Below are positions 5,954 through 52,055 of a stretch of DNA of 64,000 nt, piece by piece. Positions within the stretch are counted from its first letter, which is position 1. Each line of letters opens with the position of its first letter. The translations under genes and the position numbers were made by a program. Source of the DNA: Candidatus Krumholzibacteriia bacterium (GTDB lineage Bacteria > Krumholzibacteriota > Krumholzibacteriia > LZORAL124-64-63); contig JAZBOO010000280.1 of assembly GCA_036351155.1 (NCBI GenBank), forward strand, positions 6,147 through 70,146, written 5' to 3'. The notes beneath the pieces are model-generated. The model did not search any database. It was not told the origin of the DNA and saw only the letters and a program-made list of their open reading frames with translations.

Positions 5954-7267
5954 ATGAATCGTTTCCTGCCCATTCTTGTCCTGGTGATGCTCGCGATGTC
6001 GTCCTTGTCGCCCGCGATGGCCCAGACCGCCGGCGAAACCCAGCTGGTGGATCGAATCGTGGCCATCGTGGACGAGGAGGCCATCCTCATGAGCGACCTG
6101 GAACGGGAGATGGAACTCTACCGGATGGAACGGGAATACGCGGGCCAGCCGATCGATCAGAAGCCGGAGGAGATCCGGAGCGAAATGCTGAACCGGCTGG
6201 TGGAAAGCAAGCTGATCATCGCGGCGGCCAAGCAGGCGGACATGACCGTTGATGCGGAGGCCATCAAGGCCAGCGTGGAGCAAAAGATTGATCAGTTTGT
6301 CGAGCATTTCGGCTCCATGGAAAATCTCCAGAGCGAGCTGGCCCGCAGTGGGATGACCCTGGGCGATTATCGGGCCCGGATGACCAGCCAGCTGATGGAT
6401 CAACAGTACCTGCGCCTGGTGGTGGGCAAGTATATCCGCCCCGATGTGGAGGTGCTGGAAAATGAGATCCGGCAGTACTATCTGGACAACCTGGACCAGA
6501 TGCCGGCCGAGCCCGACAGCGTGACCATCGCCAACATTCTGATCCCGGTGCAGCCCTCGGTCGATGTGCGGCAGGCGGTGCAGGCGCGGGTTACCGAGGT
6601 TCAGGCAGCTCTGGCCAAGGGGACCCCCTTCGCCGACGTGGCGCGCCAGCTGAGCATGGGACCCAACGCCGCGCGGGGGGGAGCCATCGGAACCCTGGCC
6701 CCCGGCGACCTGTTCGATCCCAACCTGGACCGGGCGGCCTTCGCGCTGGCGGCCGGTCAGGTGAGTGAACCGGTGGTCAGCACCCGCGGTGTGCATCTGC
6801 TGCGGGTCGATGCCGTGCAGCCCGACGGGCGTCGGGCCATCAGCCAGATCTTCTTTCCCATCGAGATCACCGAGGCCGACATGAACGCGGCCAAGGCCCG
6901 CATGGACCAGGCCCGCAACCGGGTTCTGCAGGGCGAGAGCTTTGCTCTGGTGGCGGCCGAGGTCAGTGGTGATCCGGTTTCGGCCCGGGCGGGCGGGGTG
7001 CTGGGAACCTTCCGGCTGGAAGATCTGAGTGCCCAGTTCCAGGAAGTCCTGGAACCGGCCAACATCGGCGAGATCACCGAACCGGTGCTGACGCCGGCGG
7101 GGTGGTATGTGTTCCTGGTGCAGGACCGCAGGGATGGCCACCGCTACACCTTCGAGGAATTGAAGGAAGATCTGCGCCAGGTGGTGGAAGGGCAAAAGAT
7201 CGAGGCGGCCCTGGCCGAGTATGTGGCCGGGCTGAGGAATCGGTTCTTCATCGACGAGAAAAGCTGA
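5954..7267 (+). CDS. surA: Periplasmic chaperone / PPIase SurA
   Basis: Signal peptide MNRFLPILVLVMLAMSSLSPAMA, SurA N-terminal chaperone region, parvulin domain (VSTRGVHLLRV). RBS GGAG precedes ATG 5954. Confidence 0.85.
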   Translation: MNRFLPILVLVMLAMSSLSPAMAQTAGETQLVDRIVAIVDEEAILMSDLEREMELYRMEREYAGQPIDQKPEEIRSEMLNRLVESKLIIAAAKQADMTVDAEAIKASVEQKIDQFVEHFGSMENLQSELARSGMTLGDYRARMTSQLMDQQYLRLVVGKYIRPDVEVLENEIRQYYLDNLDQMPAEPDSVTIANILIPVQPSVDVRQAVQARVTEVQAALAKGTPFADVARQLSMGPNAARGGAIGTLAPGDLFDPNLDRAAFALAAGQVSEPVVSTRGVHLLRVDAVQPDGRRAISQIFFPIEITEADMNAAKARMDQARNRVLQGESFALVAAEVSGDPVSARAGGVLGTFRLEDLSAQFQEVLEPANIGEITEPVLTPAGWYVFLVQDRRDGHRYTFEELKEDLRQVVEGQKIEAALAEYVAGLRNRFFIDEKS

Positions 7268-8939: not shown

Positions 8940-9734
8940 TTGGCCACCGACATCAGCGGAACAGGGCAGGACAAGAGCAGCGGACCGCTCGATGCCCGCA
9001 CGATCATCAACTTCTACCGGGTCAATCTGGAGTACAAGGATCAGATGGCCCTGCGGGATATCAATTTCTCGGTGGACAACGGGGAGTTCCTTTGCCTGAC
9101 CGGGCCCAGCGGCGCAGGCAAGAGCAGCATCCTGCGCCTGATCGCCATGGATGCCATCCCCACGCGCGGCGAAGTGATCGTCAAGGGGATGCTGGCCACG
9201 AAGATGAATCGCAAGAAGATCGCCCTGCTGCGGCGCGAGATAGGGTTCGTTTTCCAGGACTTCCGGCTGCTGGAAGACCGCAGCGTGGAAGAGAACGTTG
9301 CTTTCGCGCAACTCGTTGTGGGCGTGTCAAATGCTGAGATCAAGAAGAACGTCATGCGCGTGCTCACCCAGGTGGGCTTGCACGACAAGAAGCACCGCCG
9401 GCCCCGCGAGCTGAGCGGCGGGGAGCAGCAGCGGGTGGCCATCGCCCGGGCCATGGTCAACAGTCCCAAGATCCTGCTGGCCGACGAGCCCACCGGCAAC
9501 CTCGATCCGGTCACTGCGCAGGAGATCATCGACCTGCTGTTCCGCATCAACGATGGGGGCACCTGCGTGATCTTCAGCACCCACGACCACGAAATCGTCA
9601 AGACCTTCGGCCAGAGGGTCATGATCATCGACGGGGGCAAGGTCAAGTCCGATATCCAGCGCCGCCAGGCGGTCGACCGCAACGCCCGTCTGACCGACAA
9701 GATGTTCCAGGCCGAGGAGGCCCTCCATGCTTAA
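8940..9734 (+). CDS. ftsE: Cell division ATP-binding protein FtsE
   Basis: Walker A GPSGAGKSS, ABC signature LSGGEQQRVAIARA, Walker B ILLADEPTGNLD. TTG start with AGGAG 6 nt upstream; the start could be further downstream. Confidence 0.9.
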   Translation: MATDISGTGQDKSSGPLDARTIINFYRVNLEYKDQMALRDINFSVDNGEFLCLTGPSGAGKSSILRLIAMDAIPTRGEVIVKGMLATKMNRKKIALLRREIGFVFQDFRLLEDRSVEENVAFAQLVVGVSNAEIKKNVMRVLTQVGLHDKKHRRPRELSGGEQQRVAIARAMVNSPKILLADEPTGNLDPVTAQEIIDLLFRINDGGTCVIFSTHDHEIVKTFGQRVMIIDGGKVKSDIQRRQAVDRNARLTDKMFQAEEALHA

Positions 9735-10611
9735 GCGCGCCCAGTTCAGCTACATCGTGCGGGAATCGTTCGCCGGCTTCCACCGGCGGAAATTGACCAC
9801 GGGTGTCACCATCCTGATCATGGGTTCGTCCCTGCTGGTCCTGGCCGTCCTGACCCTGGCCACCCTGAATCTGGGCTATCTGCTGGAATCGGCCCGCGCC
9901 AGCATCGACGTGCGGGTTTTCCTGAAGGAAGGCCTGGCCACCGAGGAGGTGGCCGAGCTTCAGCCCCGCCTGGTGGTCATTCCCGGGGTGCAGCAGGTGA
10001 ACTTCATCACGCCGGAGGCGGCCCTGCACGAGTTCCGGGCCAGCCTGGGGGAAGATGCCGACATTCTCGACCTGATGGACACCAACCCCTTGCCCGCCTC
10101 TTACCACCTGACGCTGAATCCGAACGCGCGCAACCTGGACGCCGTGCGGGCGATCCGGGACGAGATCGCCGCCTGGCCCGAATCGGGCGACGTGGTGTTC
10201 AACCAGGCCTGGGTGGACGCGCTGGAGGCCTGGGCTTTCCGCTTCCAGGTGGCCAGCCTGATCGTGGGCCTGGTGGTCTTCTTCGCGGCCGTGTTCGTGA
10301 TCTCCAACACCGTCAAGCTGACCATGGCGGCCAACGCCCGGGTGATCTCCATCCAGAAGCTGGTCGGGGCCACCAACGGGTTCATTCGCACGCCCTACCT
10401 CATGGAAGGCATCATCCAGGGGCTGCTGGCCGGAATGCTGGCCATGGGGCTGCTGGCCGGGGCGGGACATATCTTCGGCGATCAGGTGGGCGACGTGGTT
10501 TTCTTCGCGCCCGGTCAGATTGCCGGCTTTATCGGCTTCTGCGTGTTGCTGGGATTCCTGGGGTCCTGGTCGGCCATGCGCAAGTACCTGCGCCTGGGGA
10601 GTGAAATCTGA
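9727..10611 (+). CDS. ftsX: Cell division permease FtsX
   Basis: Four TM segments and a large periplasmic loop. It overlaps the ftsE stop by 8 nt, which implies translational coupling. FtsX family architecture. Confidence 0.88.
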   Translation: MLKRAQFSYIVRESFAGFHRRKLTTGVTILIMGSSLLVLAVLTLATLNLGYLLESARASIDVRVFLKEGLATEEVAELQPRLVVIPGVQQVNFITPEAALHEFRASLGEDADILDLMDTNPLPASYHLTLNPNARNLDAVRAIRDEIAAWPESGDVVFNQAWVDALEAWAFRFQVASLIVGLVVFFAAVFVISNTVKLTMAANARVISIQKLVGATNGFIRTPYLMEGIIQGLLAGMLAMGLLAGAGHIFGDQVGDVVFFAPGQIAGFIGFCVLLGFLGSWSAMRKYLRLGSEI

Positions 10612-11816
10612 TGACATGGTGGCGTAAAAGCAGTGCCTGGTTGCTGATTCCGGTGGCCATGTTGACCCTGGCGGTGGCCGGGGCCCAGGAGAACGATCGC
10701 AATGCCGATCTGTTGCGGGGCAAGATGGCCGAGAGCGAGAAGGAGCTGACGGCCATCCGCGAGGAGATCAGGGCCCAGCAGAACCGGATGAAGGGGCTGG
10801 ACACCCGTGAGGCCGAGGTGACCCGGGACCATCAGGAAATCCTGGCCGAGATCGACCTGATCCAGCAGCTGCTCAGCGGCATGGATCAGCGTCAGCGCCT
10901 GCTCGAAGAGCAGAAGGAGGGGCTGCAGGTTTCCCTGGAGCGCAGCCGGCGCGCCTACCGGGGGGGGCAGGAAGCCCTGGCGGAAAACCTGCGGGCCATG
11001 TACCGGCGGGGCCGTTTCGGACGGGTGGAGATGATCCTCACCTCGCCCAGCTTTTCCAGCTTCGTGACCCGGATGCGCTACGAAGCCCTGCTGACCCGGC
11101 TGGGTGCGGGGCTGGTGGAGCAGACCAAGCAGGAAGCCATCAACATCCACAGCCGGCAGAAGCAGCTGGAAGTGGCCCAGGCCGAGATCAACCTCTCGCG
11201 GCAGGAGGCTTCGGCCCAGACCAGCCGCCTGGAAGATCTGGTGGCCGAGCAGATGGCCGCCTTGCGCGACCTCAAGGGTGAGCGTCAGAGCATCAGCGGC
11301 CGTTTGCTGGAACTGAGCATGAACGAGCAGCGACTGTCCTACGTGCTGGAAGACCTTGAGCAGCAGCGCCAGGAGAAAGCCGCGCGCCAGGTGCCTCCGA
11401 CCACGGGCTCGCTGCAGGAGATGGCCGGGCAGCTGGAATGGCCCGTTCAGGGCGAGCTGCCGCGGGGGTTCGGCCGGTCGGTGCACCCACGATTCAAGAC
11501 CGTCACCCTGAACAATGGTGTGAACATTGCCGCGTCGGTGGGGGCCCCGGTGGCCGCCGTGGGCCTGGGCGTGGTGGAATTCGCGGATGTTTTGCCTGGA
11601 TTCGGTCAATGCGTTATCCTTGATCACGACAATGGGTACTACACCCTTTACGCGCATCTGGACCGGACCTTCGTGACCAAGGGGCAGGATATTGCCCGAG
11701 GCCAGGTCATTGCCGAGGTCGGACGCCCCGAACCCGGAGAGCCCTCGCAGCTCTATTTCGAGGTTCGGCTGGGCAAGACGCCCCTGGATCCCGCCGACTG
11801 GTTGAGGACGCGGTAG
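10611..11816 (+). CDS. EnvC-like coiled-coil M23 peptidase (murein hydrolase activator)
   Basis: Signal peptide, long coiled-coil region, C-terminal LytM/M23 domain (GVNIAASVGAPVAAVGLGVV...YYTLYAHL). Start overlaps the ftsX stop (ATGA). Confidence 0.85.
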   Translation: MTWWRKSSAWLLIPVAMLTLAVAGAQENDRNADLLRGKMAESEKELTAIREEIRAQQNRMKGLDTREAEVTRDHQEILAEIDLIQQLLSGMDQRQRLLEEQKEGLQVSLERSRRAYRGGQEALAENLRAMYRRGRFGRVEMILTSPSFSSFVTRMRYEALLTRLGAGLVEQTKQEAINIHSRQKQLEVAQAEINLSRQEASAQTSRLEDLVAEQMAALRDLKGERQSISGRLLELSMNEQRLSYVLEDLEQQRQEKAARQVPPTTGSLQEMAGQLEWPVQGELPRGFGRSVHPRFKTVTLNNGVNIAASVGAPVAAVGLGVVEFADVLPGFGQCVILDHDNGYYTLYAHLDRTFVTKGQDIARGQVIAEVGRPEPGEPSQLYFEVRLGKTPLDPADWLRTR

Positions 11817-13978: not shown

Positions 13979-14778
13979 TCGACAGCCACGTCCACCTGAA
14001 CCGCCAGGAACTTTCCGGTGAAACCGCCGCCGTTCTGGAACGGGCCGCCGCCGCCGGTGTCCACGGCTTCCTGAACGTGGGGTATGATCTGGAGACCAGC
14101 GAAGCCTCCATTGCCCTGGCCGAATCCGACCCCCGCATTCTGGCCACCGTGGGCATTCATCCTCATGACGCGCTGCTGCTGGCCGACGACCAGGGGAAAA
14201 TCACCCCCGCTGGTGAAACCGCCCTGGCCCGGCTGGAAGAGCTGGCGGCGCATCCCCGGGTGGTGGGCATCGGGGAAATCGGTCTCGATTTTTTTCGCGA
14301 CCTTTCGCCCCGTCCGGCCCAGGCGGCGGCCATGACCTGGCAGCTGCAGCTGGCCAATCGGCTGGAACTGCCGGTGGTGTTCCATATCCGTGACGCCTGG
14401 CCGGAAACCCTGCAGCTGATCGACCAGGTGGGTGTTCCGGTCAAGGGCGGCGTGCTCCACAGTTTCAGCGGCACGCCCGAGAATGTGGAATGGGCTCGGG
14501 CCCGGGGCATGCACCTGGGGATTGGCGGGCCGGTGACCTACAAGAACAGCCACCTGCCCCAGCTGGTGGAGCAGGCGGGCCTGGACCTGCTGCTTCTGGA
14601 AACCGATGCGCCCTGGCTGCCCCCGGTGCCCTACCGGGGCAAGCGCAACGAGCCGGCTTATCTGGCCCATACCCGCGATGGCATCGCTTTGGCACTGAAC
14701 TTGCCACCAGATGAGGTGGCCCAGAGGACCACAGCCAACTTCCAGCAGATCTTCGGCGGAGGACTCGGTGACACGTAG
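13975..14778 (+). CDS. tatD: TatD-family metal-dependent DNase (YabD-like)
   Basis: N-terminus MIDSHVHLN, GIHPHDA, VVGIGEIGLDF, LPVVFHIRDA, LHSFSG, LLLETDAPWL: all TatD signature blocks. ATGA overlap with the PSP1 stop. Confidence 0.9.
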   Translation: MIDSHVHLNRQELSGETAAVLERAAAAGVHGFLNVGYDLETSEASIALAESDPRILATVGIHPHDALLLADDQGKITPAGETALARLEELAAHPRVVGIGEIGLDFFRDLSPRPAQAAAMTWQLQLANRLELPVVFHIRDAWPETLQLIDQVGVPVKGGVLHSFSGTPENVEWARARGMHLGIGGPVTYKNSHLPQLVEQAGLDLLLLETDAPWLPPVPYRGKRNEPAYLAHTRDGIALALNLPPDEVAQRTTANFQQIFGGGLGDT

Positions 14779-15604
14779 CCAGCAGAATCTTTTGCGGGAT
14801 TACGGCATCAAACCGGTGAAACGGCGCGGTCAGAATTTCCTGATCGACACCAATCTGGCCCGGTCCATCGCCCAGGATACCCTGGAACTCGGCCGTGAAA
14901 TCCTGGAACTGGGGGCGGGCGGCGGGGCCCTGACCGTCCACCTATTGGGACAGGCGTCCCGTGTGGTGTGCGTGGAAGTGGACCGTCACCTGTGTGCCTT
15001 GCTGCAGGCGGAATTCGGTCATCTGCCAGAATTCCAGCTGGTGGAAGGCGATCTGGCCAAGCTGGACTGGACAGCCACCCTGGACCTGGCCGGACCGCGG
15101 CCCGTGGTGGCCGGCAACCTGCCCTACGTCCTGACCAGCAAGGTCCTGTTTGCCCTGGCCGACCACCGCAACCGCACCGCAGGCGGGGTGTTCATGGTCC
15201 AGAAAGAGGTGGCCGAACGGTTGACCGCCACCCCGGGAGGCCGGGACTACGGGATCCTGGCGGTGGTCCTGGGCTCGCTGTTTGAAATCAGACTGGTGCG
15301 AACGGTACCTTCTACCGTATTTTGGCCCCGGCCCGAGGTGGCATCGGCCATCGTGCGGCTGGTGCCCGGGGAAATCTGGGAGGATGCCGAGTACCACCAG
15401 TTCACCGCCGTGGTGAAGACCCTGTTCGGGCAACGCCGGAAAAAATTGCGCACCCAGCTGCGGGCGCATTTCCAGCTGGAAGGTGCCGAGATCGACGATC
15501 TCTGCCGACCCATCGATCTGGACCCCGATCTCAGGCCCGAGCAGATCGAGGCTTCATTGCTACGTCAACTGGCCGCGAAGCTGCCGCGGAAGGACAGTTC
15601 TTGA
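14768..15604 (+). CDS. rsmA: 16S rRNA (adenine1518/1519-N6)-dimethyltransferase RsmA/KsgA
   Basis: GQNFLID, LELGAGGGALT (SAM-binding) and NLPY motifs. GTG 14768 lies 5 nt after GGAGGA. The ORF-track start at 14711 would overlap tatD by 68 nt. Confidence 0.88.
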   Translation: MTRSQQNLLRDYGIKPVKRRGQNFLIDTNLARSIAQDTLELGREILELGAGGGALTVHLLGQASRVVCVEVDRHLCALLQAEFGHLPEFQLVEGDLAKLDWTATLDLAGPRPVVAGNLPYVLTSKVLFALADHRNRTAGGVFMVQKEVAERLTATPGGRDYGILAVVLGSLFEIRLVRTVPSTVFWPRPEVASAIVRLVPGEIWEDAEYHQFTAVVKTLFGQRRKKLRTQLRAHFQLEGAEIDDLCRPIDLDPDLRPEQIEASLLRQLAAKLPRKDSS

Positions 15605-17682
15605 ACTTGCATCGCTCCGGAGCAGGCAACACGAAAACACCGAGGCCCTGGCTGATCCTGGCCCTGGTCCTGTTGCTGTGTCCGGCGGTGGTCCTGGCCC
15701 AGGAATATGCCCAGGCCGACAGCCTGGCCACGGCCGATGGCGACACGCTGTCCGCCGATATGACCGTGGCCGAGATGGCCGCCCTGGAGAATGCGCGCAG
15801 CCGATCCGCCGAGGCCGAAGACCTGCCCACAGGGTTCTTCATCGGACTGAACAGCAGCGCCAAGGCCGGCATCAGTTTCGATGTCCGCGTGAACAGGTTC
15901 TACGGGGAGCTGAAGAACGATGTGGTCATGGCCGGGGGATCCACCTTCAACAACACGGCCAAGTGGTCCTGGGACGATTTTCGTCAGCAGGAGAAGACGG
16001 TGGATGTCCGCAACGACCGCTTCCTGTACAACTCCGGCACTCTGCTGCCTTTCAAGCTGAGCTCGAACGGAAGCTGGGACTGGTCCGAGGACAACACCAT
16101 CAACTCGGCCGGGTTCGAGAACCTCTCCAAGCGCGATTTCAAGACCGGCAACATCCAGCTCAACAAGCCCAAGTTCGATCTCGCGGGCATGAAAGCCATC
16201 CTGAAAACATCGGTGGGCACCAGCGACCAGAAGGCAGTCAGTCGCGACCAGCGCAACGATTTCACCGAGGCTTTTCTGGACGGTGGAGCCCAGCTGGGGC
16301 GGGAACTGGTCGAGGGTGTGGCTCTGGCCACCAGCGTGTACGGCAAGACCATCTCCGGTGACAAGACTCTGGGCGACAGCGCGGCGCCGACCACGACCAA
16401 CAGTGATTCGCTGGGCATCGGGGTCTACTTCGAGCGGGGAATTGCCAACGGCCGGTTGACCATTGCCCGCAGCAACTTCGAAGAGAAGTACCTGGACTAC
16501 CGGCGCAACACCACCGGGCAGATCGACACCGTGCGCGTGGACGAGTTTGACAAGGTTGTCGACGAGCTGAAGACCACCGATGCGGTGAGTGTCGAGTTCG
16601 AGAATCAGATGCGGGTGGGCCGGCTGGGTTTCCGGACTTCCCTGTCACGGGATGCGGACGAACTGGCTTACCAGGCCAGCGGTGTGGGCCGCAAGGAAAG
16701 GCAAACCGACAAGGCCCGGTTCGGACTCACCTATGCCACCGGACGGGACTCCTTCAGCCTGGACTATCACTACCTCTGGAAATGGGACGATCAGCGCCTC
16801 AAGAATGCGACGGCCAACCGCGGGCGTCAGTACATCAAGAATCGCGATCTGGATTTCTTCTACGGCCGTGAGCTTTTCAAGGCCACCGATCTCACTGTCA
16901 AGTACCACACGGGTCTGGGGCAGGATATCGCCCAGAATCAGTTCAACGCCAATGACAAGGATCGCCTGAACAACGACCTGTCCATTCAGATGGGGCGCGA
17001 CTGGCGGGGCAAGTTCAAGGTGGATCTGCTGTTTGCCTACAAGCAGAGCAAGGATGTGGCCATCCGGTCGACCAGCTCGGCCAACAACAACCTCAAGGAT
17101 TCTTACGAGGTGTCGCCGGGCTACCGCTGGCCGCTGGCCGACTGGCTGACCTTGAGCCAGACCTACCGCATCTATATCCAGTACACGGATTACGTGTATT
17201 CCGATCTGGAGCAGGTGACGCGCGAGGACGACTACAGCAAGCGGGGCAATCTGAACTCCATCGTGGTCATCAAACCGTCCAGGCGGCTTGAGGTGGCCAT
17301 CCGGCACGATTACAACAAACGATCCAGCGCCGTGAAATCGGCCACCGATGTTCTGGGCCGCACCAGCTACTTCACCAAGCAGAAGCAGGCCATCAACAAG
17401 ATCGATCTGGGGGCCACCTTCAAGTTGACCGAGGGGGTGACCATCGAGGCGGCCACCTTCCGGACTCGCGACTTCAAGGAGATTTTCGGCACCTCGGTGA
17501 GTGATAGCGAGGTCTTCAGCGGCGAGGTCTGGATCGGGGCCAAGGTGGATCAAGCGTGGGGCCCCAACGACGATCTGTTGCTGTCGGCGGTCATCAAGAA
17601 GTACAATGCCTTCGGGCCCAGCGTCACCGAAGAGACCAGTGATTACTGGGAAGCCGATGTCTCGCTGAAGTGGGGGTTCTAG
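15601..17682 (+). CDS. Outer-membrane beta-barrel protein of unknown family
   Basis: TTG 15601 overlaps the rsmA stop. Signal peptide TKTPRPWLILALVLLLCPAVVLAQE. Polar, beta-rich, alternating-pattern sequence with a C-terminal aromatic residue (...LKWGF), characteristic of OMPs. The ORF-track upstream extension to 15322 is a GC-driven artefact. Confidence 0.6.
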   Translation: MNLHRSGAGNTKTPRPWLILALVLLLCPAVVLAQEYAQADSLATADGDTLSADMTVAEMAALENARSRSAEAEDLPTGFFIGLNSSAKAGISFDVRVNRFYGELKNDVVMAGGSTFNNTAKWSWDDFRQQEKTVDVRNDRFLYNSGTLLPFKLSSNGSWDWSEDNTINSAGFENLSKRDFKTGNIQLNKPKFDLAGMKAILKTSVGTSDQKAVSRDQRNDFTEAFLDGGAQLGRELVEGVALATSVYGKTISGDKTLGDSAAPTTTNSDSLGIGVYFERGIANGRLTIARSNFEEKYLDYRRNTTGQIDTVRVDEFDKVVDELKTTDAVSVEFENQMRVGRLGFRTSLSRDADELAYQASGVGRKERQTDKARFGLTYATGRDSFSLDYHYLWKWDDQRLKNATANRGRQYIKNRDLDFFYGRELFKATDLTVKYHTGLGQDIAQNQFNANDKDRLNNDLSIQMGRDWRGKFKVDLLFAYKQSKDVAIRSTSSANNNLKDSYEVSPGYRWPLADWLTLSQTYRIYIQYTDYVYSDLEQVTREDDYSKRGNLNSIVVIKPSRRLEVAIRHDYNKRSSAVKSATDVLGRTSYFTKQKQAINKIDLGATFKLTEGVTIEAATFRTRDFKEIFGTSVSDSEVFSGEVWIGAKVDQAWGPNDDLLLSAVIKKYNAFGPSVTEETSDYWEADVSLKWGF

Positions 17683-17683
17683 C

Positions 17684-18304
17684 ATGATGATCCTGGACCG
17701 AGGGCCCCGGCTGGGCCAGACCCTGGTGCTGACCCTGGGGCTGGCCATGTTCTTGAGTGGGTGTCTTTTTGAACCCCGCGATGACGAACCGCCTTCCCTG
17801 GGTGCCCAGGTCACGTACAACCCGCGGAACAGTCCGCGCAATGTCTGGGAGAACCTGCAAATTTCCCTCCAGAACAACGACAGCTTCGGCTGGGAGGAAA
17901 ATATCAGTCCCGATTTCACCTACGAGCCCGATTCGGAATCTGTGCCCGCGGATAATCCCGGTTTTTTTCAAGGCTGGAACTTCGAGCGAGAAAAGGCATT
18001 CATCAATAACTTCTATACCAGTCCGGTGACTTCTCAGGCCCAGATGCGCAACGACGAATTCATTGTCCCGGAAGCTTCGGGGGTCGAGGTGATCTGGACC
18101 GAGGTCATCTATTTTGTGCGGGTGACCAACACCAATGACAATTCCGAAATCCGGTATCGAGGTTCAGCAAATATCACCTTTAAGCTCGAGGGCAATTTCT
18201 GGTATGTTTACAGGTGGGTGGATCTCATCGGGGAAAATGACCCCGATACTGGTCAGCCATTGCCAACTCTGGGGGTGCTGCGCGGAACATTTGGTAGCAA
18301 TTAA
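17684..18304 (+). CDS. Lipoprotein, unknown function (paralog 1)
   Basis: ATG lies 1 nt after the OMP stop. Signal peptide plus lipobox LSGC. Weak similarity to the downstream lipoprotein. Confidence 0.6.
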   Translation: MMILDRGPRLGQTLVLTLGLAMFLSGCLFEPRDDEPPSLGAQVTYNPRNSPRNVWENLQISLQNNDSFGWEENISPDFTYEPDSESVPADNPGFFQGWNFEREKAFINNFYTSPVTSQAQMRNDEFIVPEASGVEVIWTEVIYFVRVTNTNDNSEIRYRGSANITFKLEGNFWYVYRWVDLIGENDPDTGQPLPTLGVLRGTFGSN

Positions 18305-18434
18305 ACACAGTATATGTTAAATTCATGGGAGAGTATCCCGGTTTTTAACCGCAACATGCCGCGTTTCTGGTTGGGCTTCTCGTTCAAATTCCCTGTCACC
18401 CCAGGGAGGCCCTGGAATTATGGAGGACCGTGAG

Positions 18435-19061
18435 ATGAAAAGGAACTTTCTGTTACTCTTGATGGCCCTGGCCCTGATGGTCGGTCCGGCCGGTTGTATC
18501 TTCTCGCCCGACGATAATACAGGGGATCCCCCTGGAGGGAACACCGACCTGGAGTACCCCAAGGATCCCGATACCCTCATCAAAAATTTCAAGCGCATCT
18601 ACACCGAGATGCGGATTGATGATTTCAAGGCCATGCTCTTCAGCGAGTACAAGACCGTACTTCTGCCCTCGACTCTCGAGGAATGGAACGATGCGGGGAA
18701 CCCCCTGGCCGAGGATGTTTTCTACCGTGAGGACGAGATCAACATCCACCAGAACATGTTCTCCGGGAATACGGGGCTGCGACCGAATGGCGATACGGTT
18801 CCGCCCATCGCTTCCATCCAGGTTGATCTCCTCTCAAAGTTGACGAGCTGGGAGCTCATTCCCGAATCCCATGTCCATTTTTCCGGGCAGGGAGGGTACT
18901 GGGCCCTGTTCCATGTGAATCTTTCCTTCTACCTTCCGGACGGATCCCGATTCCAGGTTCAACAAAATGTGGAGTTCTACGTGGTGCCCACCGACGACAA
19001 CGGACGCACCAAGTGGCTGCTGCTGGGCCAGGTCGGGATCGAGCCCAGTAATGATCCCTAG
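18435..19061 (+). CDS. Lipoprotein, unknown function (paralog 2)
   Basis: GGAGGA lies 7 nt upstream of ATG 18435. Signal peptide plus lipobox GPAGC. Preceded by an AT-richer promoter-like gap (18305-18420). Confidence 0.6.
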   Translation: MKRNFLLLLMALALMVGPAGCIFSPDDNTGDPPGGNTDLEYPKDPDTLIKNFKRIYTEMRIDDFKAMLFSEYKTVLLPSTLEEWNDAGNPLAEDVFYREDEINIHQNMFSGNTGLRPNGDTVPPIASIQVDLLSKLTSWELIPESHVHFSGQGGYWALFHVNLSFYLPDGSRFQVQQNVEFYVVPTDDNGRTKWLLLGQVGIEPSNDP

Positions 19062-19153
19062 ACCCGGGCCCTTGGCCGGATCTGCTTGACAGCCGATACA
19101 CAAAGAGGGAGCCTTGACGGGCTCCTTCTTTTCCCCGCATATGGAGATGCGAC

Positions 19154-20635
19154 TTGAAATTGCCAGGAATGTCCCCCCGAAAGAAAACCAAGGCCCGCGG
19201 GAAAGCTCCCGCCCGCCGCAAGAAGAAAACGGCCAGACCTCCCTGGCTGGGCGCCGTGCTGGGTGTAGCTCTCGTGCTCATGGTGGCCATGATCGGGTTG
19301 CTCAAGTGGTCGGAGTCACGCACCGGTCAAACGGCCCTGCTGTCCATGGGGTCGGAAAAGATGTTCGGCGAAGTGCAGGCGGCCATCGATGAGCAGCTGG
19401 CTCCGCTGTTTCCCGGCTGGCGCTCCGGCCCCGTCGGACCGGGCAGCGCGCCAGGTGACCACGACTGGCCCGCCGACGAGTTCGGCTCCGGCGCGGCGGT
19501 GTGGTGCCGGGTGCTGTCCGTCCCTGCCGATGTTCCCTACCGCCACCTTTCCTGGCAGATCGCTCAGGCCCTTGAACCGCTGGGAGCCCGGGTCCTCTGG
19601 TCCCAGCGCCTGTACCCGGACCAGCCTTCGGCGGCCCAGGCCCAGCCCAGCGAGGAGCTGGATCTGCTGAGGTTGGATCTGGGCGTACCCGGCCGCCCCA
19701 CCCACACCCTGGTGTTGCAACGCCAGGGCCATGAGGCGCCGGTGCGCTGGGGCACAGGGCCGGGGATCACCGCCTGGTCCGCGCTGGCCGCCCGCCACGA
19801 TGCGCCGCTGGTGGCCCTGGTCATCGACGACTGGGGCTATGCCAAGACCACCGCCACGCGCCAGCTGATCAGCTTGCCGGTTCCACTGACCATGGCCGTC
19901 CTGCCGGGGCTGTCCTATTCTCGTGAATTTGCCCTGGAAAAAACCGACCTGGTGCTGCCTCCGGATCTCCTGAAAGGCGCCGCCGGGGTGGGGCAGCGGG
20001 CCGCCCCGGGCCGCATCGAGCGTCTGGCGGCCGGGTGTTTCGTGGAGGTGAGCGTGGATCGGCCGCGCACCCGCTCGGAAGTCCGGCGCCGGGAAATCCT
20101 GCTCCATCTGCCCATGCAGCCCGAAGGCTACCCCGAAACCAATCCCGGCAGCGAGGCCATCATGGTGGGCATGTCCCGCACCGACATGGAAGTCCGGGTG
20201 GACAAGGCGCTGAACCAGCTGGACCGCGTCACCGGCGTGAACAATCACATGGGCAGTGCGGCCACCAGTGATCCCGCCACCATGGACAATCTCATGGCGG
20301 TCCTGGAGGATCGGGGGCTGCTCTTCCTGGACAGCCTGACCTCATCGCGCTCGGTGGCCTACGATGCGGCCCGGCAACAGGGCATTCCCGCCCTGAAGAA
20401 CCGCCTTTTTCTGGACTACGACAACGAGGACGAGCAAAAGATCACCGCCAAGCTGAATCGCCTGGTCCAGGCCGCCCGCAGCACCGGGTACGCCGTGGGC
20501 ATCGGCCACCCTCACCCTGCCACCGCCCGGGTGCTGGCCAGGGAAATCCCGCGGCTGGTGGCCGAGGGTGTGGTCTTCGTGACCGTCTCGGAATTGCACG
20601 CCCTCGTGGACCATCGTCAGAAAGTTTTGCCATGA
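19154..20635 (+). CDS. Divergent polysaccharide deacetylase family protein (YibQ-like) with N-terminal basic tail and TM anchor
   Basis: LVALVIDDWGY...NNHMGSAATSD...GIGHPHP match the YibQ/DUF610 deacetylase-like family. N-terminus KKTKARGKAPARRKKKTARP followed by a TM helix. Confidence 0.7.
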   Translation: MKLPGMSPRKKTKARGKAPARRKKKTARPPWLGAVLGVALVLMVAMIGLLKWSESRTGQTALLSMGSEKMFGEVQAAIDEQLAPLFPGWRSGPVGPGSAPGDHDWPADEFGSGAAVWCRVLSVPADVPYRHLSWQIAQALEPLGARVLWSQRLYPDQPSAAQAQPSEELDLLRLDLGVPGRPTHTLVLQRQGHEAPVRWGTGPGITAWSALAARHDAPLVALVIDDWGYAKTTATRQLISLPVPLTMAVLPGLSYSREFALEKTDLVLPPDLLKGAAGVGQRAAPGRIERLAAGCFVEVSVDRPRTRSEVRRREILLHLPMQPEGYPETNPGSEAIMVGMSRTDMEVRVDKALNQLDRVTGVNNHMGSAATSDPATMDNLMAVLEDRGLLFLDSLTSSRSVAYDAARQQGIPALKNRLFLDYDNEDEQKITAKLNRLVQAARSTGYAVGIGHPHPATARVLAREIPRLVAEGVVFVTVSELHALVDHRQKVLP

Positions 20636-24832: not shown

Positions 24833-25105
24833 GTTTTTGGGCCAGTGTTCCGGGGAAGCCACTTCTCGGTGGCCATACTGTCCGCTTACGGGGTATAGAA
24901 GTCTCTTTTCGCGGTCAAATGGTCCGGAGGAGAAGCTGCGGGTACTGAGGGGCTTGGCGGCAAAATCCTTGCTTTCACCTATTTCCTGGCGAAAAATTGA
25001 GGTTTGGGGGTACAATGGGGGAGTGAGGTCCACAGGAAGTCTCCAGGCATGATCCTTGCCCTTTTCCTGGTGAGACATGGACCAATTTTTCTGGAGAGAC
25101 CGGAA

Positions 25106-25606
25106 TTGACCTATTTCAAGAAAACATCCCACCTTCATCAGATCGGCTTCTTCCTGGGGCTGGGGCTGCTGGTGTTCACGTGCGCCATTCCTGCCCTGGG
25201 CAAGATCGACAAGTCGGGGGCTCGCCTATCCGGCGCCGAGCCTGACCTCGTTTTCGAGGCCATTGCCACGGCCTGGGAACTCGGGGACGAGGATGCTCTG
25301 GCCAAGCTGGTGCACGAGAACGGCCTGCGGGTGACCAGCGGCGACTACAACCGTTTCACCGATTACAGCCCCAGTCAGGCATTCTACTATTTCCGCAATC
25401 AGTTTCGCACCTACCCGACGGTGTCCTTCGGCATCGAACGCATGCAAAAGCAGATGTCGGGTCAGGACCGGGTGCATGGTATGGTGAGCTGGCAATACCA
25501 GCGCACCAGGGGTGGGCCGGTGCAGGAACTCAAGCTGGTCCTGGTTTTGACCCGGCAGGGAAGCAACTGGCGGCTGGCGGAGATCAATACCATCAACAAG
25601 AGGTAA
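25106..25606 (+). CDS. Small secreted protein, possibly NTF2/SnoaL-like fold
   Basis: GGAGAG lies 7 nt upstream of TTG 25106. Signal peptide MTYFKKTSHLHQIGFFLGLGLLVFTCAIPALG. About 130-aa mature domain. The fold assignment is an inference only. Confidence 0.5.
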   Translation: MTYFKKTSHLHQIGFFLGLGLLVFTCAIPALGKIDKSGARLSGAEPDLVFEAIATAWELGDEDALAKLVHENGLRVTSGDYNRFTDYSPSQAFYYFRNQFRTYPTVSFGIERMQKQMSGQDRVHGMVSWQYQRTRGGPVQELKLVLVLTRQGSNWRLAEINTINKR

Positions 25607-25609
25607 TTC

Positions 25610-28600
25610 ATGACCTGGTTGGTCAGCCAGGCGGCACGCGCGCTGGGTATTCTCTGTCTGCTGGGGCAGGGATTTCTCGTTTATGCGGGCAGCACGGTGG
25701 GGCCTGAGCCGGGACTGGCTCTGCCCGGGCTGTTTCTGGCCCTGACCATCGTCCAGGCGGTGGTTTTTTCCCTGGAACTGCGAAAAAAGCTGACGAGCCT
25801 GGACGAAGCGGGGCGCCGTGCCCTGTTCCTGCCGAGTGTTTTTCTGACCGTGGCCATCGGAACCATGCTGGCCTGTGGGCTGGTGGTTCTGTCCCGGGGG
25901 ACCGGTGCGGGAGACTCATCCTGGAAAGATCCCGAAAGCTCTTCACCGGTGCTGGCCGAGGCACTGCTGGCCCTGGAACAGTATCCTGCCGCCTCGGCCG
26001 CTCTGCTCGATGGGGTCCGGGTGATGCGCGGCCAGCTGGAGAGCCAGCCCGTCAAGGGCGATTGGTTTCGATTGCTGGCCCCGTGGCCGGAGCAGTGGAG
26101 CCGCTATTTTCCTGCGGCGGATGCCTTGCCTGGCGATTTGCTGGTCCATCGTCGGGGCTCACCTCTGGCCTGGACCGAGGGTGCGGAGCCTCTGCCTCCC
26201 CCGCCTTCCCAGGACGTGCGTGCCCTGCCCGTGGACTTTCTGACCCAGCATGCGGGGACCTGGTACCTGCGCAGCTTCGTGATGCTGTCCTCGGAAACCC
26301 TGCTCGAATGGCAGGTGCCCCTGGAAGGACCTCAGCTGGCCCACCGCTGGCCGGGACTGGAACTGTCCGTGAGATCCCTCAACGAGGGCACTCTGACAGG
26401 GAAGGTGGCCCTGACCGACTCCGATCAGGCACGCCAGCTGGTCGCCCAGATGGAACCCGGCAGTGCCGACCAGGCGGCGAGCAAGGGCCGGGCACGTCTC
26501 ATGATCCTCTTGACCCTGGGGTGGCTGCTGGGGCTGACATCGTGGTTTCACATCCTGGCCGGACACGGAGTCTGGCTGGGCTCTCTCTGGGCGGGACGTG
26601 CGCTGCTGGCGGGCGTGGACTTCTTCCGCTGGTTTCCTCAGGCCTTCCCCGACCTCACCGCCCCGGCTCCTCCCGGCCATCCCATCAGCCTGGTGGGGCC
26701 TGCCTACTTTGCCACCCCCTTTGCCTCGGGGTGGTTCGCCTCCACGGCCGATGCCCTGCTGACCGCCCTGGTGGTGGGTCTGACGGCCTGGGCCCTTCTG
26801 CGCTCACGAGGCCTGGTGGGATGGACCGATGAGCTGGCGCGGGCCGGGAAAACCCGCCCTCTGCTGGGACAGGGTCTGGTGTCGGGGCTGGTGTTTGGAC
26901 TGGTGGGTGCGGGATTGCTCTGGCTCGCCCACCTCTTTGCAAGCCTGGTGGCCGACAATGCCAACCCGCGGCTGATCGGCCAGGGCGTCTCGGTGGGGTT
27001 TCTCTCCTTCTGGGGCCTCCATGTGGTGCTGATGGTGATCCCCTTCAGTCTGGCATCCCTGCTGGTGGGCTGGGCCGGCGACCGACCCTGGCCCGAGCGC
27101 ACCCGACTGGGCGGTTGGCTGGCCGCCGCTGGTTTGGGCGGACTGGTTTCGGGCGCGGTTTTCTTCTTCCTGCCGCGCGACTGGTGGTGGCAACCCGCGC
27201 TGGCCGGTCTGATCACGGCGACCTGGTGGCTGGTGGCTCCTGCCCTGCGTTCGCGCCCCCGCTTCTTGCGGCGGTTTGCCTGGCCCACGGTGATGCTGCT
27301 GGTGGTGGTCTGGAACTACGTGTCCCTGCGAGAAGTGTATGACCAGGCCGAGCGCAGCTGGCTGGTGAGCAAGGGCCACCTCATCACCAGCCCCGGGGAG
27401 GAGGGGACGCGCTTCCTCCTGGAAGATGCCATGCTGGGGATGCGGGAAACGGACCGCCTCAGTCCCTCGACGGGCGAGGGTGTGGGCATCTGGCGGGACC
27501 ATCCGGCCTACCTGCTGTGGGCGTCCTCGCCCTTGCGGGACCTGGGCTATGCCTGCTCGGTGGAGATCATCGACACCGAGTACGGTGCCACCCCGTTTTT
27601 TGCCACCGGGTTCATGCGCGATTCGGGTTATGAACTGCTCAGTCGCGGCAACTGGACCGACCGCGAAGGGGCTCCCGCCACCGACGACGAGCAACTGCAA
27701 TTCCAGACCGAACGCCGGGTCTATCCCGGGGGCGAAGAAGAGGTCCTGGTGGCCCGGATGGGCCGGGCCGGTGATCTGGGCTGGATCCGGGTGGAGTTGC
27801 CGGTGCGCAGCTGGCGGATCTCGACCCTGCTGGCCGACCTGCGCGATGAGGTCCCGGTGGACAGTGGTTACCGGCCCCGGGCGGAAGTGGATCGCCCCAT
27901 TCTTCTCTTGCGGGGGGACAACCAGGGGTGGCTGGGAACGGGAGATCCCGGTCTGAAGGGAGCACAGGCCAGTGGCCTCCTGACCGAGCTGAAGCAGGGA
28001 GTGCGTCCCTGGGCGGCGATCGAGCGAGACGATGGCACCTGGCTGTGTCGCTGGAACCCCCTGCCGGACAATCTGGCCCGGTCCCCGGGAGAAGGCTTCC
28101 TGCTGGGGCTGAGACGCGCGGGCCCGGTGGAAGACCTGCTGGATCTTTCGCGGATCATGCTGATCAATCTGGTGTTGCTGCTGGTCCTGTTTGGCCTGGT
28201 TCAGGGCACGGAGCGACTGCGCCTGGCGTTCCTGCCTGCGGGCGCGAATCGGCCGAACAGCCAGGGGCCCTGGCTGCCCGGGTTTCAGGAGCGGTTTCTG
28301 GCGGGCTATCTCATGCTCGGCCTCCTGTTGCTCCTGGTGGTGGGCATGTCGGTGGACCGGGTGGGTTATCAGCGGGTGCTGACCGAATCCAAGGAAAAAA
28401 CCCTGGATGGGCTGAACCAGGCCATTTCCCAGCTGCGCAGTCTGCTGGCCGAACAGGCCGGAGCCATGGCGGCCAGCGAGTACATCTCGGACCTGCTGGT
28501 GGGCGAAATGGCCGGGCAGCGTCCGGTGGGTCCTCCCAGTCGACGCCAGGCCATGGTCTTTGCGGGTGATGGCACGCTGGTACTGGACGAAACCCTCAGC

Positions 28601-30394
28601 AATCTGACCGATACCGAGGCGCGGGTGCTGCTCACCGCCGGCCGCAGTAACCCCTTGATCGTGATCAGAGATGACCAGCAGATCTACGTGGCCACCGTGA
28701 TTCCGGTGGATCTTTTCGCTCCGGTGGAAGGGGTGGCCGACGAGGACTCGCTGGTGCTGAACCCGGAACCTGGAGAAGGGTTCTTTCTCTACCGCCAGCA
28801 GCTGGATTCCGAGTTTCTGGGCAGCCTGGCCGACCTGGTGCGCGGTCAGGCCACCTTGTATCTGGAGGGGCAGCCCTATCTGGCCAGCCATCCGGGACCC
28901 GTCTTTGCGGGCCGAAAAAATTTGCTGACGGGACCGGATCTGATGGCCTCGTTGCTGGACCATCCCTGGGGTCCGGGGGTCTTTCCCCGTCCGGGGCGCA
29001 CCTTCGCCTTTTCCGGCAGTCAGCCCTTGCCCGTGTTTGCCCGGGACGAGCAAGGACGTCTGGTGCCCCAGCCCATCCCCGGGGTCATGTCCCTGGCCTT
29101 CCCGGATCGGGAGCAACAGTACAACCAGCAACGTCGCGAGACGGTCCTTTTCCTGGCGGGGCTGGCCAATCTCATCTTGCTGACGGCCCTGATGCTGGCC
29201 CTGGTCATGTCCTGGAACCTCTTCCGCCCGTTGCGGGTGCTTCTGACGGCGACCCGCCGTCTGGCCGACGAAGATTTTGATGCGCCTCTGCCTCCGGGCG
29301 GTCGGGATGAGGTGGGTCGACTGGCTCAGGCCTTCGGTTTGATGAGAGGTCAGCTCCGCACCGCCCGCGAAAAACTGGCGGCCCGGGAAAAGTTTCTGGC
29401 CGGTGTGCTGGACCAGGTGACGGTGGGTGTGGCGGTGGTGGACCGGCAGGGGCAGGTGGCAGCGCTGAACCCCGCCGGCCGGCATATCCTGACGGATTTT
29501 CAGCCCGAGATGGAAGAGCAGGCGGCCGTGCGCGGCCTGGTCGAGATTTTCCGGGACATGGCCGCGGGAAAGCCCACCTGGTCCGGTGAAATCCGCAGCG
29601 CCGATGGTCAGCATACCCTGCGGGGCGCCATGGCACCCCTGGATATTGCCGGGGGCGAGTCGGACACCATGCTGGTGTTCGAGGACATCACCGAGTTTCT
29701 GCAGACCAAGAAGATGGCCATCAACGCCGAGCTGGCGCGCCAGGTGGCCCATGAGATCAAGAACCCTCTGACTCCCATCCAGCTGTCGGTTCAGCTGCTG
29801 GACCAGGCCTGGCGAGATCAGCACCCGCGCCTGGATGCCATCGTACCCGAGACCGTGCAGAGGGTGCTGTCGCAGGTGGAACTGTTGCGGACCATCGCCT
29901 CGGAGTTCAGCCTGCTGGGGCAGCCCGGCGAGCTGGATCTAGTGGTTCTGGACCTGGCGCACCTGGTAGGTGAGGTGACCGATGCCTACCAGGGCGCCGG
30001 GGCTGTGGATTCCGATCATTTCCGGGTGGAAGTGGCCGATTGCCCCCACCCGCTGGTCCTGGGGGAACGGGATGCTCTGCGCAAGATCCTGGGTAATCTC
30101 ATGCAGAACAGCCTGGATGCCACGCGGCCCGAGGAGCCTCTGTCGGTGCAGGTGAGCTGGCGCATCCAGGCGGGCCGGCTGACGCTGGTCTGGGTGGACA
30201 ACGGCCAGGGTTTGCTGCCGGAGGTGGCTGATCGGCTGTTTGATCCCTATTTTTCCACCAAGAGCAAGGGCACCGGTCTGGGCCTGGCCATCTGCCGGAA
30301 CCTGGCCGACCGCATGGGAGGATCCATGACTCTGGCCAACCGACAGGATGCGCCGGGGGCCCAGGCCACCTTGACCTTGCCGCGCGCCAAGTGA
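25610..30394 (+). CDS. Giant (1594 aa) polytopic sensor histidine kinase: about 9-10 TM segments and large periplasmic regions, then HAMP-PAS-HisKA-HATPase (NtrY-like core)
   Basis: C-terminus has HEIKNPLTPIQLSVQLL (H-box), LGNLMQNSLDA (N-box) and GTGLGLAICRNLADRMGG (G2-box). A HAMP/PAS segment precedes it. Many hydrophobic helices in the first 560 aa and one more near residue 850. Confidence 0.85.
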   Translation: MTWLVSQAARALGILCLLGQGFLVYAGSTVGPEPGLALPGLFLALTIVQAVVFSLELRKKLTSLDEAGRRALFLPSVFLTVAIGTMLACGLVVLSRGTGAGDSSWKDPESSSPVLAEALLALEQYPAASAALLDGVRVMRGQLESQPVKGDWFRLLAPWPEQWSRYFPAADALPGDLLVHRRGSPLAWTEGAEPLPPPPSQDVRALPVDFLTQHAGTWYLRSFVMLSSETLLEWQVPLEGPQLAHRWPGLELSVRSLNEGTLTGKVALTDSDQARQLVAQMEPGSADQAASKGRARLMILLTLGWLLGLTSWFHILAGHGVWLGSLWAGRALLAGVDFFRWFPQAFPDLTAPAPPGHPISLVGPAYFATPFASGWFASTADALLTALVVGLTAWALLRSRGLVGWTDELARAGKTRPLLGQGLVSGLVFGLVGAGLLWLAHLFASLVADNANPRLIGQGVSVGFLSFWGLHVVLMVIPFSLASLLVGWAGDRPWPERTRLGGWLAAAGLGGLVSGAVFFFLPRDWWWQPALAGLITATWWLVAPALRSRPRFLRRFAWPTVMLLVVVWNYVSLREVYDQAERSWLVSKGHLITSPGEEGTRFLLEDAMLGMRETDRLSPSTGEGVGIWRDHPAYLLWASSPLRDLGYACSVEIIDTEYGATPFFATGFMRDSGYELLSRGNWTDREGAPATDDEQLQFQTERRVYPGGEEEVLVARMGRAGDLGWIRVELPVRSWRISTLLADLRDEVPVDSGYRPRAEVDRPILLLRGDNQGWLGTGDPGLKGAQASGLLTELKQGVRPWAAIERDDGTWLCRWNPLPDNLARSPGEGFLLGLRRAGPVEDLLDLSRIMLINLVLLLVLFGLVQGTERLRLAFLPAGANRPNSQGPWLPGFQERFLAGYLMLGLLLLLVVGMSVDRVGYQRVLTESKEKTLDGLNQAISQLRSLLAEQAGAMAASEYISDLLVGEMAGQRPVGPPSRRQAMVFAGDGTLVLDETLSNLTDTEARVLLTAGRSNPLIVIRDDQQIYVATVIPVDLFAPVEGVADEDSLVLNPEPGEGFFLYRQQLDSEFLGSLADLVRGQATLYLEGQPYLASHPGPVFAGRKNLLTGPDLMASLLDHPWGPGVFPRPGRTFAFSGSQPLPVFARDEQGRLVPQPIPGVMSLAFPDREQQYNQQRRETVLFLAGLANLILLTALMLALVMSWNLFRPLRVLLTATRRLADEDFDAPLPPGGRDEVGRLAQAFGLMRGQLRTAREKLAAREKFLAGVLDQVTVGVAVVDRQGQVAALNPAGRHILTDFQPEMEEQAAVRGLVEIFRDMAAGKPTWSGEIRSADGQHTLRGAMAPLDIAGGESDTMLVFEDITEFLQTKKMAINAELARQVAHEIKNPLTPIQLSVQLLDQAWRDQHPRLDAIVPETVQRVLSQVELLRTIASEFSLLGQPGELDLVVLDLAHLVGEVTDAYQGAGAVDSDHFRVEVADCPHPLVLGERDALRKILGNLMQNSLDATRPEEPLSVQVSWRIQAGRLTLVWVDNGQGLLPEVADRLFDPYFSTKSKGTGLGLAICRNLADRMGGSMTLANRQDAPGAQATLTLPRAK

Positions 30395-30446
30395 GCAGCC
30401 CCCGAGAGCATCCGGAAGGACGCCCATGACTTCGCACCTCAGGATC

Positions 30447-31127: not shown

Positions 31128-31135
31128 CAGAAAAA

Positions 31136-46285: not shown

Positions 46286-46296
46286 AAGAGGTTGTC

Positions 46297-46686
46297 ATGA
46301 TCGACTCGGCCAGGATTCTCATCGTGGATGACGAGAAGCCCATCGCCACGTTGCTGGCACAGACCTTCGAGCAGGAAGGGCATCAGGTGGCGAGCGCCCA
46401 CGACGGGATCGACTGCATGAACAAGATGGCCAGCTTCCGGCCCGACGTGGTGATCATGGACATCATGATGCCCAAGCTGGACGGCATCGACACCACCAAG
46501 CTGATCCGACGCAATCAGAGCTACGCGGGGACCATCATCGTGGCGCTGTCGGCCAAGGCCGATGAAGACACCCGCCACAAGATGAAGGACGTGGGAGCCA
46601 ACCTGTTCATGCGCAAGCCGTTTTCCATCGCCAAGCTGGTTGCCCGCGTGTCTCACATGCTGGAAACCCGATCGCAATCGAGGTAG
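46297..46686 (+). CDS. Single-domain response regulator (CheY-like)
   Basis: ILIVDDE, D..IMDIMMP, LSAK, KPF. Confidence 0.88.
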   Translation: MIDSARILIVDDEKPIATLLAQTFEQEGHQVASAHDGIDCMNKMASFRPDVVIMDIMMPKLDGIDTTKLIRRNQSYAGTIIVALSAKADEDTRHKMKDVGANLFMRKPFSIAKLVARVSHMLETRSQSR

Positions 46687-46692
46687 CCAGGG

Positions 46693-49347: not shown

Positions 49348-49432
49348 CCAGTTGAGACTCAACCTGGTGCCGGAGATGCCGATCACCGGGGACAGGAAAC
49401 GCCCCATTCGCCCATAGACCGGAGGAACGGCC

Positions 49433-51992: not shown

Positions 51993-52055
51993 TTATTCAT
52001 CAATACCCCCGAATACGAAATCATCGGGATTAATGCACTGTCTGAAAGGTTTGCC

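Follow-up and report, generated by a model that had tools for sequence, protein, structure and literature searches.

We analysed a 64,000-nucleotide stretch of DNA (64 kb; hereafter the window, GC content ≈64%) from a Candidatus Krumholzibacteriia bacterium (contig JAZBOO010000280.1), in which the rRNA methyltransferase gene rsmA is followed by a gene for an outer membrane (OM) β-barrel protein and by two lipoprotein genes in tandem. This trio represents a conserved, undescribed OM module that combines a plug-less barrel of approximately 28 strands with two to four distantly paralogous lipoproteins of NTF2-like fold. The features of the locus are listed below (aa, amino acids; pI, isoelectric point; AF2, AlphaFold2; pLDDT, predicted local distance difference test).

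14711-15604, + strand: rsmA (ksgA), 16S rRNA dimethyltransferase (TIGR00755, E = 1.5e-62; PF00398, E = 4.8e-45)
15601-17682, + strand: gene for the OM β-barrel protein, 693 aa (no Pfam or NCBIfam family; AF2 pLDDT 83.7)
15601-15699, + strand: signal peptide of the barrel protein, aa 1-33, with predicted cleavage between VLA and QE (read from the sequence, ...AVVLA followed by QE)
15700-15837, + strand: acidic disordered N-terminal linker of the barrel protein, aa 34-79, pI 4.05 (pLDDT <50 at residues 1-74)
15838-17679, + strand: barrel domain, aa 80-693, approximately 28 antiparallel strands by AF2 and DSSP, ending in ...WGF
17684-18304, + strand: lipoprotein 1, 206 aa (lipobox LSG-C27, NTF2-like fold)
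18305-18434, + strand: AT-rich spacer of 130 nt between the lipoprotein genes, with a TATATGTTAAAAT element, a CCCTG...CAGGG hairpin and a GGAGG ribosome-binding site
18435-19061, + strand: lipoprotein 2, 208 aa from the ATG at 18435 (open reading frame from 18420; lipobox PAG-C)

In the window, rsmA is the last gene of the string holB-PSP1(ricT)-tatD-rsmA, which we take to be an ancient housekeeping string, found also in Bacillus subtilis. The TTG start of the barrel gene (15601-15603) overlaps the TGA stop of rsmA (15602-15604) in the tetranucleotide TTGA at 15601, and a gap of 1 nt separates the TAG stop of the barrel gene (17680-17682) from the ATG of lipoprotein 1 at 17684. Both junctions had been pointed out in the initial annotation of this DNA and were confirmed, as was the presence of surA nearby (5954-7267). 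The barrel reading frame has the same 693-aa extent as was called for a database protein of 100% identity (P0001). Overlapping or 1-nt junctions at the 3' end of a housekeeping string imply co-transcription and constitutive expression, which bears out the earlier proposal that barrel and tandem lipoproteins are co-transcribed and tightly coupled to rsmA; judged from the sequence, the module is probably translationally coupled to holB-ricT-tatD-rsmA and constitutively expressed. For lipoprotein 2, the ATG at 18435 is the likely true start rather than position 18420, since GGAGG lies upstream of it and since the residue it encodes, M6, is invariant in the family alignment (24 homologues). The TATATGTTAAAAT element and the small CCCTG...CAGGG hairpin of the spacer are kept in two further loci, L001 (12745-12887) and L002 (12672-12780), although the proteins of these loci are just ≈50-60% identical to those of the window. 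The spacer may be an internal promoter or attenuator for separate control of lipoprotein 2. Scanning of the locus returned no Rfam RNA family and no match to the sigma-70 promoter, the consensus of which is not expected to fit promoters of the FCB (Fibrobacteres-Chlorobi-Bacteroidetes) group.

The AF2 model of the barrel protein, built on a 35-sequence alignment (predicted template modelling score, pTM, 0.70), was all-β over residues 80-693. DSSP assigned 29 strand elements, two of which (497-504 and 507-513) were taken as one bulged strand; the resulting 28 is the sole number at which both termini lie in the periplasm and the periplasmic turns are short (2-5 residues), alternating with longer loops on the outer side. 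A dyad pattern of polar and apolar residues was in register in all 28 strands, many strands were 16-23 residues long, and the longest loop comprised 18 residues. The model lacked a plug domain, a folded periplasmic domain and any long loop folding inwards. From simple barrel geometry, the Cα radius is ≈24-26 Å for 28 strands, compared to 23-25 Å for 26. A signal peptide, dyad-patterned strands, an even strand number and an aromatic C-terminal β-signal are all present, as in OM barrels that depend on the β-barrel assembly machinery (BAM), and as modelled the protein is a BAM-type, plug-less barrel of approximately 28 strands. Within the close family, mean column identity was 55%, the C-terminal F693 was invariant with W-x-F conserved, and A33 and Q34 at the predicted cleavage site were nearly invariant. 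Loops were conserved to a similar degree as strands (0.65 versus 0.62), unlike in an ordinary porin and more as in a component of a machine. The N-terminal linker is unconserved apart from the motif (A/V)DS(L/I)xAA, the sole N-terminal feature kept throughout the superfamily, including a cluster of only 15% identity; a partner in the periplasm may use this motif as a docking peptide.

A word-indexed search with the barrel protein retrieved 67 relatives of 40-100% identity, none of them with a Pfam domain, and a profile search yielded 191 relatives at E ≤ 1e-3 (46 at E ≤ 1e-30) among 1.84 billion cluster representatives. Full-length matches fell into two large clusters and small remote ones, which have in common a length of ≈600-720 aa, a signal peptide, the (A/V)DS(L/I) motif and a C-terminal ...W...F. 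Barrel homologues carry the label Candidatus Krumholzibacteria, as does a database entry with the exact sequence of lipoprotein 1. Each of the three proteins has numerous homologues and belongs to no curated family, and the module is known from uncultured lineages only.

The gene order recurred in all 28 related loci compared, 26 of them distinct since L004 and L006 nearly duplicate L003 and L005; like the numerous homologues, this speaks for more than a chance arrangement. Two Krumholzibacteria genomes with 48% barrel identity displayed the order surA...ftsE-ftsX-M23-holB-PSP1-tatD-rsmA-barrel-lipo1-lipo2-PF04748-DUF362-secD-secF, identical to the window, and the core order was also found in an intermediate group (L005/L006) and in a distant cluster (L003/L004, L007-L024), both at 15-20% barrel identity and labelled Krumholzibacteriia, Latescibacteria or Latescibacterota and, in one case, Gemmatimonadales. 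Wherever upstream flank was available rsmA lay directly upstream of the barrel gene, with the exception of one locus with a single inserted gene. The Krumholzibacteria- and Latescibacteria-labelled loci with downstream flank carried a lipoprotein-1-type gene directly 3' of the barrel gene (hmmsearch, E = 1e-12 to 1e-29), followed, if the flank sufficed, by one to three further lipoprotein paralogues and then by the PF04748 gene. Candidatus Eisenbacteria (L025) has rsmA, one inserted gene, the barrel gene, two recognisable lipoprotein paralogues and then secDF; two unassigned remote lineages retain rsmA, barrel and two lipoproteins although their other neighbours differ, and just the rsmA-barrel pair is kept in a remote Cloacimonadota relative (Ca. 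Zophobacter franzmannii).

The initial annotation had read the trio, by synteny, as a possible LptD/LptE module. In E. coli, lptD lies in the cluster lptD-surA-pdxA-rsmA, and the module resembles LptD-LptE in that a very large BAM-assembled barrel is encoded together with a lipoprotein of ≈180-200 aa, in an envelope and housekeeping neighbourhood that includes rsmA and surA, with a barrel-and-plug arrangement being plausible. Tests of profile, domain, strand count and fold did not support this identity. Pfam and NCBIfam scans of all three window proteins at E ≤ 1 detected no OstA, LptD, LptE or other meaningful family. PF03968, PF04453 and PF19838 were found neither in the window barrel nor among the families listed for 57 diverse relatives, whose sub-threshold matches were generic (OMP_b-brl in 11 of 57, DUF2490 in 7 of 57), and PF04390 (LptE) was found neither in the window lipoprotein nor in 32 relatives. 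Because residues 1-74 of the barrel protein are disordered, it offers no jellyroll to dock an LptA/LptC bridge. In a Foldseek search with the barrel model, MtrB ranked first (E = 3.9e-10; template modelling score, TM, 0.46) and LptD 38th (TM 0.29). No solved structure was similar to the barrel beyond a generic level (TM <0.5), and a sequence search of the PDB with the three family profiles returned nothing for the barrel and noise for the lipoproteins (E ≥ 0.2). We rejected the barrel as LptD given the missing profile match and OstA_N jellyroll, the poor fold match and a strand count of ≈28, where 26 are expected of LptD; the lipoprotein was rejected as LptE given the missing PF04390 match and a fold that is NTF2-like and not the LptE α/β sandwich. 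The module further differs from LptD-LptE by its two to four paralogous lipoproteins in place of a single one. The synteny is better explained by a barrel gene appended to the holB-PSP1/ricT-tatD-rsmA string, and the evidence favours what had been offered as the alternative, an uncharacterised pair of OM protein and lipoprotein. LptD/LptE should hence not be annotated from synteny alone.

A related proposal is that the trio serves as the lipopolysaccharide (LPS) exporter of this lineage, in which a far diverged or non-homologous system would have replaced LptD/LptE. We consider this highly improbable, even though a wide barrel with ≈180-aa lipoproteins has the overall architecture of LptDE, the module is conserved at the level of housekeeping genes and the 64-kb window contains no canonical lpt gene. 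The profile searches in 57 and 32 family members, the NTF2-like lipoprotein fold and the poor structural match to LptD all speak against it, as does the lack of an OstA_N jellyroll or other folded periplasmic domain that could take over LPS from the LptA/LptC bridge. Moreover, Latescibacteria single-cell genomes are reported to encode LptBCDEF/G (PMC4454575), which indirectly suggests that related lineages have the standard pathway. The place of the trio in the rsmA operon, 7 kb downstream of surA, recalls the E. coli cluster, and in sister lineages pdxJ follows a few genes downstream; this likeness of surA, rsmA and pdxJ to the proteobacterial lptD neighbourhood probably reflects either coincidence or a housekeeping synteny of ancient origin. 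In loci of the distant cluster, pdxJ lies between a yibQ-like gene and secD (L003, 11226-11966; L004, 9962-10702).

MtrB of the MtrCAB complex (PDB 6r2q_B) was the best structural match of the barrel model. It has 26 strands as opposed to ≈28, identity is 11%, and MtrB_PioB was not among the Pfam families listed for the 57 barrel relatives. In contrast to MtrCAB, the lipoproteins of the module have a single Cys each and no CXXCH haem sites, and the operon contains no cytochrome genes. Membership in the MtrB/PioB porin-cytochrome group was thus discarded, as no multihaem cytochrome partners are encoded. TonB-dependent transporters, including SusCD, combine 22 strands with an N-terminal plug and a TonB box, features that the module barrel lacks altogether, and their similarity to the model is that of barrels in general (root-mean-square deviation ≈8 Å). 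With no PF07715 match, no folded N-terminal domain and ≈28 strands, the barrel was not assigned to this class either.

The mature lipoproteins comprise 180 aa (lipoprotein 1; pI 4.2) and 188 aa (lipoprotein 2; pI 4.4) and start with the tether motifs C-L-F-E-P-R-D and C-I-F-S-P-D-D, respectively. Each has a globular domain of ≈150 aa with the α+β cone typical of NTF2-like proteins (three helices on a curved antiparallel sheet), flanked by a post-Cys tether and a C-terminal helix, both of them conserved. With few exceptions, the paralogues carry a signal peptide and lipobox followed by the common motif C-[LI]-[FL]-[DES]-[PT]-[RDKE], which in a low-GC lineage becomes C-x-N-P-F. Nine distant loci labelled Krumholzibacteriia or Latescibacteria (L010, L015-L018, L020-L022 and L024) encode three to four paralogues rather than two, and the later copies in these longer arrays begin with C-(E/S/D)-D-D-P instead of C-[LI]-F-x-P. 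The two tandem lipoproteins of the window (206 and ≈208 aa) had been described as divergent paralogues of about 200 aa. BLASTP between them matched the lipobox region only (E = 0.02), leaving the paralogy invisible, but alignment of the two family profiles by hhalign recovered it (probability 96.3%, E = 1.8e-9, 170 columns), and the two are distant paralogues by this sequence comparison. Among relatives of lipoprotein 1, weak matches to NTF2-clan families were obtained for SnoaL_2 (2 of 32, best 5.5e-6) and DUF4440 (3 of 32, best 1.1e-3), and one relative (P0145) bears a precomputed PF12680 annotation; for the window lipoproteins themselves, no curated family of the NTF2-like superfamily reached threshold in the Pfam scan. 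Unlike MlaC, SnoaL and DUF4440 proteins, those of the module are lipid-anchored, with the post-Cys tether and the C-terminal helix conserved. Elsewhere in the window, a small protein, secreted or membrane-bound and weakly matched by DUF4440 (25004-25606), is encoded directly before a 1594-aa HAMP histidine kinase (25610-30394), a pairing seen also in L001 (19567-20094); the lipoprotein-1 and lipoprotein-2 family profiles did not detect it as a paralogue.

What might such a module do? Among the machines of the Gram-negative OM, the main ones are large barrels with lipoprotein partners, such as LptDE, BAM, MtrCAB and SusCD, and several of these are antibiotic targets. The module is best read as an analogue, not a homologue, of LptDE or MtrB. 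We narrowly favour the view that it forms a constitutive complex of barrel and lipoproteins in the OM that handles a hydrophobic component of the envelope. The parts of this proposal differ in strength: a physical complex of barrel and lipoproteins is reasonably likely, whereas a lipid-like cargo is a tentative and rather doubtful assumption. As the channel is too wide to stay open, as plug and in-folding loop are missing and as the lipoproteins are invariably co-encoded, the latter are candidates to occupy or cap the lumen; by analogy, they may act as the plug. They would be lodged within the barrel or against it, much like LptE in LptD and MtrA/MtrC in MtrB, each held via its C-[LI]-[FL]-[DES]-[PT]-[RDKE] tether after the lipidated Cys, and the NTF2 cones would bind or pass the hydrophobic component at the OM. 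Cones of this type typically enclose a hydrophobic ligand. MlaC, an envelope phospholipid carrier, includes an NTF2-like domain (PMC12153054).

Several observations weigh against the favoured complex. The strand count was taken from the DSSP string and not from inspected coordinates, and the alignment behind the model was of 35 sequences. Residues facing the lumen are charge-balanced (40 basic, 43 acidic), and no obvious electrostatic match to the acidic lipoproteins was seen. The NTF2-like fold is generic and occurs also in enzymes and scaffolds. Weak evidence in favour comes from a mirror-tree analysis of 13 loci, in which the distance matrices of barrel and lipoprotein 1 kept the highest partial correlation tested (0.55) after controlling for rsmA, secD and yibQ. 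Against this, much of the gene order around the module is shared by these lineages, which makes some of the linkage a matter of inherited synteny, and the Cloacimonadota relative has no lipoprotein genes after its barrel gene. The last two points, together with the merely generic barrel similarity and the weak OMP_b-brl and DUF2490 matches, would fit an ordinary large porin with which the lipoproteins share an operon and form no complex. This is very unlikely, as an unplugged pore of 28 strands would be lethal in size, the loops are conserved, and the tight junctions and the invariable order of barrel then lipoproteins persist at 15-20% barrel identity and in lineages where the other neighbours have changed.

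The favoured reading of an envelope-handling complex can be taken further, although the following version is unlikely: the module would be a core OM biogenesis machine of Krumholzibacteriota, Latescibacterota, Eisenbacteria and, remotely, Cloacimonadota, in which lipid-binding lipoproteins insert or surface-expose a hydrophobic component. Candidate cargoes would then be lipoproteins, with the module as LolB-type receptor or surface-lipoprotein exporter, or a lipid or glycolipid. To our knowledge, neither a LolB-type receptor nor a surface-lipoprotein exporter has been identified outside Proteobacteria, and the module touches the open question of how an OM without LolB has lipoproteins or lipids inserted into it or flipped across it. 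Should the module be a machine and not a porin, it would fill a gap in the envelope biogenesis of the FCB group. The barrel is at least as large as those of LptDE, BAM, MtrCAB and SusCD, and partners of NTF2 fold are of a new type; in general, large barrels that work with lipoproteins are well known. The trio offers a defined three-protein structural target found in several phyla, with a function that is probably a core one. Searches of open-access text found no paper on a 28-stranded OM barrel and nothing equivalent to NTF2-like lipoproteins acting with barrels.

Alternatively, the module could be a device for surface display or uptake, in which the lipoproteins reach the surface via the barrel, or cap it in the manner of SusD, and the cones capture an external hydrophobic nutrient. 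Display through or with a barrel has parallels in MtrB-MtrC, RcsF-OmpA and the Slam substrates. The residues right after the lipidated Cys are acidic (CLFEPRDDE, CIFSPDDN), recalling the acidic lipoprotein export signal of Bacteroidota; the long strands of the model reach well beyond the membrane, and the number of paralogues varies from two to four. We regard this explanation as quite unlikely, since plug domain and TonB box are lacking, genes for inner-membrane transporters or for catabolism are not consistently found alongside, and the position in a housekeeping operon and the conserved loops argue against a nutrient-specific surface system.

Downstream of the lipoprotein genes, the window contains the following two features:

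19108-19125, no strand assigned: GC-rich hairpin GGAGCC-N6-GGCTCC, with the T-rich + strand tail TTCTTTTCC (terminator-like, consensus-level match)
19154-20635, + strand: YibQ/SddA-type divergent polysaccharide deacetylase (PF04748, E = 1.8e-68) with an N-terminal membrane anchor

The terminator scanner reported the hairpin on the - strand, while its + strand tail was read from the sequence; it may end the rsmA-barrel-lipoprotein transcript before the PF04748 gene. The deacetylase is a protein of 493 aa with an extra N-terminal region besides its membrane anchor. Its E. coli counterpart YibQ has been identified as SddA, which deacetylates denuded glycan strands of peptidoglycan (bioRxiv 10.1101/2025.02.18.638797). 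Together with ftsE-ftsX-M23 (EnvC-like; 8940-11816), the deacetylase gene makes up one conserved cluster with ≈7 kb between the two parts, and this co-occurrence of M23 and deacetylase genes echoes the co-expression of envC and sddA in E. coli described in the same study. We gave little credence to the resulting explanation, in which the module is the OM partner of a division or peptidoglycan-splitting machinery comprising the SddA/YibQ deacetylase and the FtsEX-EnvC-like genes. The PF04748 gene does follow the lipoproteins in all Krumholzibacteria- and Latescibacteria-labelled loci with flank, ftsE-ftsX-M23 lies 4-6 kb upstream, and E. coli SddA, co-expressed with EnvC, modulates septal amidase activation, including from the OM (bioRxiv 10.1101/2025.02.18.638797). 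However, the Eisenbacteria locus keeps the module without yibQ (in the other remote loci the downstream flank is too short), the terminator-like hairpin separates lipoprotein 2 from yibQ, the partial correlation between barrel and yibQ is low (0.12), and the Pfam and NCBIfam scans revealed no peptidoglycan-binding domain.

Further genes of the window lie beyond this cluster. After secDF and the kinase, 30426-38135 encodes a DUF4159 protein, a DUF4175-like protein (1262 aa), a TPR protein (648 aa) and a secreted protein of ≈420 aa; DUF4159 and a 1165-aa gene also follow secDF in Eisenbacteria (L025, 12915-13890), indicating the same deeply conserved backbone. At 51966-55172, a papain-family protease of 1068 aa carries a β-helix region and a Por_Secre_tail/FlgD_ig C-terminal sorting domain. 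As a substrate of type IX secretion, it indicates that the organism possesses such a system, consistent with the FCB group. Finally, 43033-49804 is a signalling run composed of a response regulator-GGDEF protein, two hybrid histidine kinases that carry fused HD_5 (HD-GYP-type) domains, and a pair of single-domain response regulators.

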